A stretch of DNA of 19,480 nucleotides. Source: a virus (taxonomy: Duplodnaviria > Heunggongvirae > Uroviricota > Caudoviricetes). Each line of letters opens with the position of its first letter. Within the stretch, counting starts at the first letter, position 1. Of this stretch, positions 15,110-15,963 are shown piece after piece. The stretch lies in IMG/VR virus record IMGVR_UViG_2648501130_000004. One strand, 5' to 3'. The position numbers were made by a program, and so were the translations under genes. A model generated the notes under the pieces. That model saw only the letters and a list, made by a program, of their open reading frames with translations. It was not told where the DNA came from and did no database searches.

Positions 15110-15187
15110 GTAAACCTTGTTTTCGATTATATGTCGAAGATAAATGTTAGTAACGGCATAATAAGTAAATATATAGCTGTGATAGCA

Positions 15188-15210
15188 ACCCGCCACTGAG
15201 CGGGTTTTTT
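15188..15210 (+). terminator. Second copy of the same terminator hairpin (CCCGC-cactga-GCGGG followed by T6)
   Basis: About 25-bp direct repeat of 14501..14526, placed 78 nt after the lipoprotein stop. Confidence 0.7.
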
Positions 15211-15332
15211 GTACCTGTAAACTTGGTGCAGTACAGTAAACACGCTGGTGGTCGTGAATACTGACTTTTTATCTTGCTGGCTTTTTAGACAAGAGTTATT
15301 GGTATGTCATGTTAACCAGAAGGGAAAAAGAC

Positions 15333-15509
15333 ATGCTAAAACAGCAAGATATGACAGAAACCGCCGCCGCAGTCCTTCATTTCTTACCTGCTGACAAGTG
15401 GGTAACGCCACGCATGATGACGAGAACTACCGGAGTAAGCGAAGCCCGGTGCCAGTTAATACTGACTCAGTTAGTTCTGGCGGGTCTGGCGAAGGATAAC
15501 GGCGGGTAA
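15333..15509 (+). CDS. Small hypothetical ORF (58 aa), possibly a gene remnant
   Basis: ATG 15333 preceded by AGGGAAAAAG; the ORF track starts at 15309; no recognisable domain. Confidence 0.3.
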   Translation: MLKQQDMTETAAAVLHFLPADKWVTPRMMTRTTGVSEARCQLILTQLVLAGLAKDNGG

Positions 15510-15963
15510 AGCTGTTGGCTGGAACTGGAATAGCGGTGTTTATGATGCAGATATCAGTGGTGCATCGACATTAATCCTCCACTTCAATATGAATGCGGGG
15601 AGTTGCCCTGCTGTACAGTTCCGCGTGAATTACAGGAACGGCGGTATTTTTTATCGTTCAGCGCGTGATGGTTATGGCTTTGAAGCTAACTGGTCAGAGT
15701 TTTACACCACAACACGCAAACCCTCTGCGGGGGATGTTGGTGCATATACGCAGGCAGAATGTAACTCAAGGTTTATTACAGGTATTCGCCTTGGCGGTCT
15801 GTCATCTGTTCAGACATGGAAAGGCCCCGGCTGGTCTGACAGGTCAGGTTATGTCGTTACGGGTTCAGTTAACGGAAACCGTGATGAATTAATTGATACA
15901 ACTCAGGCAAGGCCAATTCAGTATTGCATTAATGGGACGTGGTATAACGCGGGGAGTATTTAA
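15475..15963 (+). pseudogene. Side tail-fibre protein, C-terminal variable-domain fragment (N-terminal constant part missing)
   Basis: Reading frame is open from 15475 with no fibre N-terminus; the C-terminus ...PIQYCINGTWYNAGSI parallels the minus-strand fibre ...PIQKYINGTWYNVVQV. Confidence 0.65.

Follow-up and report, generated by a model that had tools for sequence, protein, structure and literature searches.

On sequence comparison, the 19,480-nucleotide (nt) stretch of tailed-phage DNA analysed here (IMG/VR record IMGVR_UViG_2648501130_000004; hereafter, the window) is a lambdoid prophage that occupies the prfC site of Escherichia coli. We put at roughly 0.85 the probability that this prophage has lost 25,048 bp, with its lysis and morphogenesis genes, in one illegitimate deletion, and that the left end of the deletion is non-random. 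The locus itself is an ordinary, cleanly resolved case of a familiar class, the prophage made cryptic by internal deletion. The window is 100% identical to positions 4017799-4037278 (minus strand) of E. coli SWYH.B349aT (NZ_CP091773.1), with yjjG and prfC as the genes flanking the element. The att core is a direct repeat of 20 bp, TTTGCCATTATTTCTCACCC, with one copy upstream of int and the other inside the 5′ end of prfC; both copies were found beyond the window edges, in locus L006, and the element measures 20,976 bp between them. Integration at prfC has been published for phage Ayreon, for the cdtI phage and for the Stx1a/Stx2c phages of CC119.

The deletion joint was mapped to the nucleotide against CT30, a collinear intact relative at the same site. 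BLAST alignment gives two collinear blocks, with window positions 13597-15508 corresponding to CT30 coordinates (ct) 1-1912 and positions 15507-19480 corresponding to ct 26959-30932; the segment absent from the window relative to the CT30 prophage is 25,048 bp. The joint, GGCGGGTA|A at 15501-15509, follows the left parent to 15508 and the right parent from 15509. Across this point the left parent reads GGCGGGTA|CGGGAATAAATTC... and the right parent reads ...AAATGATA|AAGCTGTTGG, with an overlap of 2 bp only, the TA at 15507-15508 common to both. A preliminary description of this DNA had raised microhomology at the junction as something to look for, and it is present, but for a single joint a 2-bp overlap is no excess over chance (P = 0.16). 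The identical junction occurs in three complete genomes, three IMG/VR contigs and at least eight draft NCBI assemblies, and it is therefore not an assembly artefact. No insertion sequence (IS) element is present at the window joint.

The joint connects codon 59 of a 67-aa helix-turn-helix gene of the late operon to codon 839 of a 989-aa side tail fibre. The 58-aa open reading frame (ORF) at 15333-15509 (+ strand) had been taken as a possible fused remnant. It corresponds instead to the first 58 of the 67 codons of a small winged-helix gene (phrog_331, profile positions 35-92 of 111), the intact form of which is WP_000917724.1 and the distant relatives of which are named TrmB-family regulators. 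Its TAA stop (15507-15509) is assembled by the joint from the TA of the left parent and an A of the fibre, and comparison with the intact gene shows an ORF that has lost its 3′ end rather than one joined in frame to the fibre. The preliminary description also had the fibre remnant starting at 15475. Fibre DNA begins at 15509 (15507 with the overlap), and 15475-15506 belongs to the left gene in another frame. The remnant itself is real: positions 15509-15963 (+) hold the last 151 codons (K839-I989) of the side tail fibre, the first 838 codons having been deleted. This stub matches PF12604 (gp37_C) and several tail-fibre PHROGs, is 100% identical to the CT30 fibre WP_209206231.1 from ct 26959, and is already annotated as a pseudogene in RefSeq.

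About 24 whole genes and parts of two fall within the deletion. Its left part contained the remainder of the small gene, followed by genes for a DNA methyltransferase, a holin, an endolysin and an Rz-type spanin, and cos; its head part, the small and large terminase subunits, gpW, portal, a ClpP-capsid (protease-capsid) fusion and head-tail genes; and its tail part, tail genes, the tape measure, M, L, K, I, J, Lom and 838 fibre codons. A cosN-like sequence at about ct 5127 places cos in the deleted DNA. Between Q and the fibre stub the window has only a 141-aa gene and the 58-aa ORF, and from Q to attR no lysis, packaging or virion-assembly ORF or annotation was found other than the stub and the tail fibre assembly (tfa) genes. 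The earlier proposal that a deletion joint here removed the lysis and morphogenesis modules, leaving a cryptic prophage, is thus borne out, and its estimate of about 20 kb or more for the missing span is replaced by an exact figure. Alignment to intact relatives did map the breakpoints, as had been anticipated, but the relatives named for it (Rac, Qin, e14 and P22) were not informative, and the long-tailed lambdoid phages of prfC were. From its gene content, the element is predicted to be unable to lyse the cell, to cut cos or to make particles. Upon SOS induction it could still derepress, and perhaps excise and replicate, and Q would then drive transcription through the 141-aa gene into the fibre stub and tfa.

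Could the late region lie elsewhere in the genome? It might have moved by inversion or translocation, or the short form might be the ancestral arrangement from which the 'intact' form arose by insertion. Strains with the window joint (allele A) do hold one more locus that matches part of the junction query, and nothing else favours this idea. In strain AR434 that second locus (L187, 4557436-4581261) is a lambdoid prophage at dusA which is itself defective, keeping only holin, portal and tail fragments and a fibre and lacking most structural genes. Both flanks of the joint are collinear with the intact prophage, the element ends in both att cores, and the host genes beyond them are in the usual order. 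In addition, truncated genes stand on both sides of the joint (58 of 67 codons on the left and 151 of 989 fibre codons on the right), so the short form cannot be the ancestral arrangement. We regard relocation or an ancestral short form as scarcely credible; the structural genes that the preliminary description had allowed might be found elsewhere are absent from the locus, and the one other related prophage located, that of the sister strain AR434, is defective too. As a side observation, L187 shares the DUF968, KilA-N and RusA module, a diverged small gene and the methylase, and ends after the holin; it also carries a SLATT and reverse-transcriptase (retron-like) pair beside its integrase.

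The intact parents of the deletion are closely related to the window. In CT30 and 13P484A this prophage is found at prfC with its late region complete, and CT30 also shares the window's right-hand end. Many E. coli genomes are ~100% identical to the window over positions 1-15508 and then diverge. Over this full span 13P484A differs at 5 of 15,508 bases (99.97% identity), and CT30 is 99.95% identical over the 13597-15508 overlap. Ayreon (MF807953.1) is 99.1% identical over window positions 3364-15508, and the Stx2c phages reach 97.3%. Because Ayreon is an isolated, inducible, tailed phage, the intact form is a working phage. The integrase, both att cores, the LexA-type repressor, the replication genes and Q match those of intact relatives, and all early protein accessions except that of RusA equal the intact relative's.

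Host DNA beside the intact lysogens differs by 1.4% from that of the window strain (L006 versus L002 and L004). A near-identical prophage between host flanks that are 1.4% apart argues for a recent arrival in several lineages, with the deletion later still. These comparisons indicate recent, independent lysogenization of different E. coli lineages by the prfC prophage, and the 25-kb deletion would be a recent, single-step event. Among 5,426 complete genomes, the undeleted left junction is found in 812, the undeleted fibre site in 362 and the window joint in three; the junction-specific 58-aa protein occurs in 488 blocks of a large collection.

Further losses have followed in some carriers. Seven complete genomes (allele B, including L005, isolateD) lack another 551 bp across the joint (window 15234-15781, with a GTA overlap), a loss that takes out the 58-aa gene entirely and extends further into the fibre stub; their host flanks are 100% identical to the window's, and allele B is probably a second, nested deletion. 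AR434 has an extra 858-bp loss in RusA/KilA-N (window 11632-12489, TAAC overlap), and several draft carriers of the 25-kb deletion lack the segment from RusA to DUF968 together with the 5′ half of Q. The loci that show these independent losses are L008, L009, L016 and L017. As read from these alleles, the carriers show stepwise erosion after the first deletion.

The second part of our reading concerns the left end. An exact look-up of the 58-aa product finds only joints that make a stop within a 3-nt window. It returned mostly the window joint, together with two loci (L012 and L013) that have the same left end, ...GGCGGGTA, joined to a different fibre type. Because this look-up is bound to the position of the stop, homologues of the intact 67-aa protein were searched for instead; the DNA of those with altered C-termini was retrieved, and the right partners were mapped. 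Among these near-identical proteins, breaks occur at codons 30-65, most of them at G58/Y59. One joint, that of ETEC1716 (L186, a complete genome), came from an unbiased DNA listing of complete genomes. In total, at least nine different large E. coli deletions, the window's included, begin within GGCGG^G^TA^C, a spread of no more than 3-4 nt. Their right ends lie in the terminase large subunit (L024), a head gene (L025), J (L018), the K839 region of the side tail fibre (the window) and other fibre types at four positions (L012, L013, L019 and L186); L026 is also counted; its right partner, like those of L184 and L186, did not map to CT30 or Ayreon.

Of the 15 rearrangement joints found in the 201-nt gene, nine are inside 4 nt (P = 2e-12; about 1e-10 once corrected for how the 4-nt interval was chosen). 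Two features recur at the joins: (i) in 5 of 7 mapped joints the right parent carries TA at the join (P = 2e-5), the bases common to both parents being TA or TAC, and (ii) a G is found four bases before the join in 5 of 6 right parents. The joints of L024 and L021 use 4-8 nt of homology, that of L024 being imperfect (GCGGGT-N-C). The same spot is also the location of a 66-nt slippage deletion (L021), and in one draft genome (L020) IS1 is inserted 2 nt to its left. Elsewhere in the gene, L183 and L185 have small deletions between 13-14-nt repeats, L184 breaks 18 nt further on, P0017, P0018 and P0023 have joints 4-7 codons further on, and single breaks occur at five other codons. A literature search found no description of the window joint or of a recurrent breakpoint, and the GTDB representative genomes contain no hot-spot allele.

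The sequence at 15479-15512, CTGGCGGGT...ACGGCGGGTACGGG, holds repeated GGCGGGT/CGGG units. Small slippage deletions and frameshifts among these units are common in public assemblies, apart from the large deletions (for example in L163, L021, P0039-P0041 and P0045).

Two explanations would remove the need for a preferred site. The first is that the clustering reflects ascertainment or chimeric short-read assembly, with the window joint a one-off random illegitimate deletion. The first extra joints did come from the exact 58-aa look-up, limited to stops in a 3-nt window, and three joints are from short Logan/ENA contigs. The homologue search, however, is independent of the 58-aa product and could see codons 30-65, and the majority of breaks were still at 58/59; the ETEC1716 joint comes from the unbiased listing and a complete genome; restriction to the last 81 nt of the gene, over which detection is even, still gives P = 3e-10; and chimeras from De Bruijn assembly would share at least k-1 bases rather than 2. 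An artefact of this kind is quite improbable. The second explanation, which we also consider unlikely, if slightly less so, is that breakpoints are random and that selection favours retention of 58 codons and loss of the tail and everything downstream. Loss of the lysis genes is common to every hot-spot allele and ought to be selected for in a lysogen, and four or five of the right ends lie in the fibre gene and leave tfa intact. Yet it is not plausible that selection would act at 4-nt resolution, and the products vary, some stopping after 58 or 61 aa and others continuing into in-frame or out-of-frame tails of 17-38 aa. The seven complete genomes of allele B lack the small gene entirely, and it is therefore dispensable; joints 4-7 codons further on survive as well.

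For the single illegitimate deletion with a non-random left end, several points weigh on the other side. The window's own joint, at P = 0.16, gives by itself no sign of a special mechanism. The sensitivity of the protein search drops for early breakpoints, the short Logan/ENA contigs (L024, L025 and L026) could be chimeric, and only five of the nine hot-spot joints are in long or complete assemblies. Some of the joints may also depend on one another, since a left sequence that is kept could act more than once within a lineage and give nested deletions. The prediction that the element makes no particles and still excises rests on gene content, and the case against a relocated late region in SWYH.B349aT draws on the prfC locus and on the second locus of AR434.

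How might the left end be fixed? A retained end that is constant, an overlap of 2-3 nt and right partners that lie anywhere would fit a defined 3′ end at ...GGGTA. Such an end could arise by a site-specific nick or cut, or by a replication stall just before CGGG. Joining would then be primed on the terminal TA: the 3′ end ...GGGTA would re-anneal further right, its last 2-3 bases pairing with single-stranded DNA, and be extended or ligated, with deletion of the intervening DNA. As the left sequence survives, the site could fire again. This proposal refines the illegitimate deletion and is not an alternative to it. It accounts for a left end fixed within 4 nt and right ends scattered over 25 kb, for the TA or TAC of most mapped joints and for the frequent G four nt before the join in the right parents. 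It also agrees with a published model of E. coli illegitimate recombination, in which replication is disturbed, breaks are resected and the resulting 3′ overhangs anneal through microhomology (PMC11372144), although that pathway typically uses about 9 bp of homology (PMC11372144). Against it, no nuclease or blocking protein of matching specificity has been identified, the site forms no stable hairpin (z = -1.6 and 0) and some joints with longer imperfect homology, such as the GCGGGT-N-C of L024, fit ordinary short-homology recombination. Leftward deletions from the site would also go undetected in our survey, which is blind to them, and one scan of IMG/VR gave none. We hold the defined end to be a reasonable working proposal with rather less than even odds. 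The related suggestion that GGCGGG-TA-CGGG, carried in the small gene at the head of the late operon by lambdoid phages of a widespread E. coli family, is a built-in fragile site that time and again launches one-sided deletions of the lysis and morphogenesis genes is offered more tentatively still.

The constant 2-bp overlap is also what a serine recombinase requires, and it raises the question of whether the joint is the product of a Gin/Pin-type invertase, or of the integrase, acting on a pseudo-site. Both an invertase gene and a gix-like site are located 2.5 kb right of the joint, and a gix-like half-site, TTATCCTTCGCC, is found ~20 nt left of the joint on the - strand. The natural crossover centre, however, is TC and not TA, and the centre of the pseudo-site is ~20 nt off the joint. 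Even intact relatives have only a 72-aa fragment of the invertase, and in L012, L013, L019 and L186, whose joints are at the hot spot too, it is missing from the genes called to the right of the joint; the right partners have no common site-like sequence; and comparison of the att core with the joint gives no convincing match. Recombinase action is very unlikely on these grounds, and both the invertase pseudo-site (with its TC centre and truncated or absent invertase) and an integrase secondary site were rejected.

Other candidate causes were likewise set aside. Folding of 61- and 121-nt DNA segments, on both strands, gives hairpins or cruciforms no better than those of shuffled sequences (z = -1.6 to 0). 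Chi-limited RecBCD resection could draw on a Chi 57 nt to the right, but six more Chi in the same orientation lie beyond it in the late region and would be met first. Terminase cleavage at a pseudo-cos finds only a loose likeness between GGCGGGAGC and GGCGGGTAC, with the cosN-like sequence ~3.2 kb away on the right side, and nicks would be expected at positions other than those of the joints. An IS-driven deletion is represented by the single draft genome with IS1 beside the site (L020) and by 0 of 5,426 complete genomes. Finally, the site is not a module (mosaic) boundary, since intact phages read straight through it: 156 intact-type contigs (120 from IMG/VR and 36 from metagenomes) are unbroken here apart from one small slippage, and the real module boundaries are 1.2-1.3 kb beyond, after the methylase.

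Two Chi sequences (GCTGGTGG) on the + strand flank the small winged-helix gene, one at 15244 and the other 57 nt past the joint in intact phages. Chi orientation is strongly biased overall, with 9 on the + strand and 3 on the - strand of the window, and 10 and 1, respectively, in the CT30 locus.

Right of the fibre stub, the window preserves the remains of an invertible fibre segment. An intact tfa gene of 177 aa (15966-16499, +; PF02413, E = 2e-36; WP_000972143.1, as in CT30) is followed by an alternative tfa gene of 175 aa in the opposite orientation (16528-17055, -; PF02413, E = 1e-37), and inverted repeat I1 pairs the latter with 15966-16126. Next is an alternative fibre C-terminal cassette (17059-18060, -; PF21446), which RefSeq annotates as a pseudogene 'missing N-terminus' in deleted and intact relatives alike. 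The right crossover site, at 18034-18075, is gix-like and reads TTATCTAAAACC-TC-GGTTTACAGGAA on the - strand. It is one arm of a 43-nt inverted repeat (91%; ct 26441-26483 and 29486-29527), and the pair is complete in intact CT30 only; the left site (ct 26441-26483) was deleted and the window keeps the right one alone. Beyond it, at 18102-18320 (+), is a 72-aa N-terminal fragment of a Gin/Pin-type serine invertase (PF00239, positions 2-73 of 145). In the otherwise intact CT30 (L004) the invertase is already a 64-72-aa N-terminal fragment, with a tfa fragment after it. Judged from the CT30 sequence, the inversion switch is a casualty that predates the deletion. With one crossover site and a 72-aa invertase fragment, the fibre segment of the window is predicted to be frozen and no longer able to invert.

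On the left side of the joint, the late antiterminator Q is annotated at 13651-14403 (+, 250 aa, with the frame open from 13609). It matches PF03589 (Antiterm, E = 1e-53) and RefSeq 'antitermination protein' WP_001047105.1, and the same protein is found in intact relatives. The preliminary description was right about Q, but for the late promoter that it placed beside the gene we found no good sigma-70 match on the + strand from 14404 to 14510; by eye, the only sigma-70-like match after Q is a weak TTGCAT-N17-TAAGAT, and a late promoter after Q is predicted from position. A 24-bp stem-loop with a T-run (14510-14533, +) begins 107 nt after the Q stop, at the position expected for the late terminator tR′, and is an annotated terminator in phage Ayreon. 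No RNA families or tRNAs were found between Q and the joint. An 88-bp piece inside Q (14078-14165) recurs at 98.9% identity in Ayreon (L007, 44407-44494), at a position immediately before the terminase genes and with the annotation 'putative late gene regulator'.

The terminator is repeated exactly at 15187-15210 (+), and this 24-bp duplication bounds a cassette of 677 bp with 35.7% GC. The cassette carries the 141-aa gene (14684-15109, +; phrog_4748), a lipoprotein-like moron with a signal peptide and an LVGC lipobox but no match in Pfam or NCBIfam. L013, L021 and L183 have a single terminator copy and no cassette, and their flanks match the outer flanks of the window cassette. By this comparison, the moron at 14510-15210 is present or absent through the terminator repeat.

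The remainder of the window is an early region. The tyrosine integrase (1-1224, assigned from gene order and annotation) is followed directly by an AIPR/Abi-alpha-like abortive-infection gene (open frame 1388-3181, +) and then by a leftward early operon, the LexA-type repressor, a Cro-like gene, replication and nin-like genes, RusA, KilA-N, a DUF968/HNH gene and Q. The accessory genes kept are the AIPR gene and the lipoprotein moron; the former is kept in intact and deleted forms alike and is a candidate for 'beneficial cargo'. In the DUF4222/ash-family region, Rfam matches above the gathering score identify an isrK Hfq-binding RNA (9088-9164, +) and a C4 antisense RNA (9189-9276, +). This pair, at 9088-9276, looks like a P1/P7-type antisense immunity module set in a lambdoid early region.

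As a single locus, the window is a textbook step of prophage decay, and an unusually clean one: it traces to one event, its two parents are known and its joint is resolved to the base. It is the recurrent breakpoint, rather than the deletion itself, that merits follow-up. If confirmed, it would supply a defined sequence that can be mutated to test whether the deletions that inactivate prophages are random or site-preferring, and it would bear on the repair pathway by which E. coli joins ends that share 2-3 bases. Were the fragile site real, decay into harmless cryptic elements would be in part mechanistically channelled and not random. The typing of Stx, cdt and related prfC prophages would also be affected, as the small gene is present in them too, and deletion by this route could disarm them or lead to their being wrongly scored as intact.

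The closest known systems are the long-tailed lambdoid phages of prfC (CT30, 13P484A, Ayreon, the cdtI phage and the Stx1a/Stx2c phages of CC119). They have the same integrase, att core and site as the window and the same early region through Q, the moron and the small winged-helix gene, and CT30 and the window also have in common the fibre tip, the tfa pair and the invertase stub. Relative to these intact phages, the window is without 25,048 bp (methylase, lysis cassette, cos, head and tail) and carries no stx or cdt cargo.

The cryptic prophages of E. coli K-12 (DLP12, Qin, Rac and e14) are lambdoid remnants without morphogenesis genes, which keep a tail-fibre C-terminal stub, tfa and a Pin-type invertase region beside regulatory and accessory genes. 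They are old and have been eroded many times, and DLP12 and Qin keep their lysis cassettes. The window differs from them in being explained by a single, apparently recent, nucleotide-mapped deletion that removed lysis and morphogenesis together and left the rest still like the intact phages.

In the Gin, Cin and Pin systems, serine invertases act on the invertible tail-fibre segments of Mu (G), P1 (C) and e14 (P). The window resembles these in its opposed fibre-tip and tfa cassettes, its gix-like 26-bp site and the adjacent serine invertase gene, and differs from them in having one crossover site, a 72-aa invertase fragment and a joint that is not at the crossover site.

The lambda Spi- assays of aberrant excision, for which preferred endpoints are known, offer the nearest parallel for the joining event, as RecA-independent, non-homologous joining in or beside a lambdoid prophage. 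Unlike the Spi- events, most of the joints described here share 2-3 bp, and their left ends coincide within 4 nt, with right ends spread across 25 kb. The hot-spot events are, moreover, natural alleles of E. coli genomes rather than selected transducing phages.

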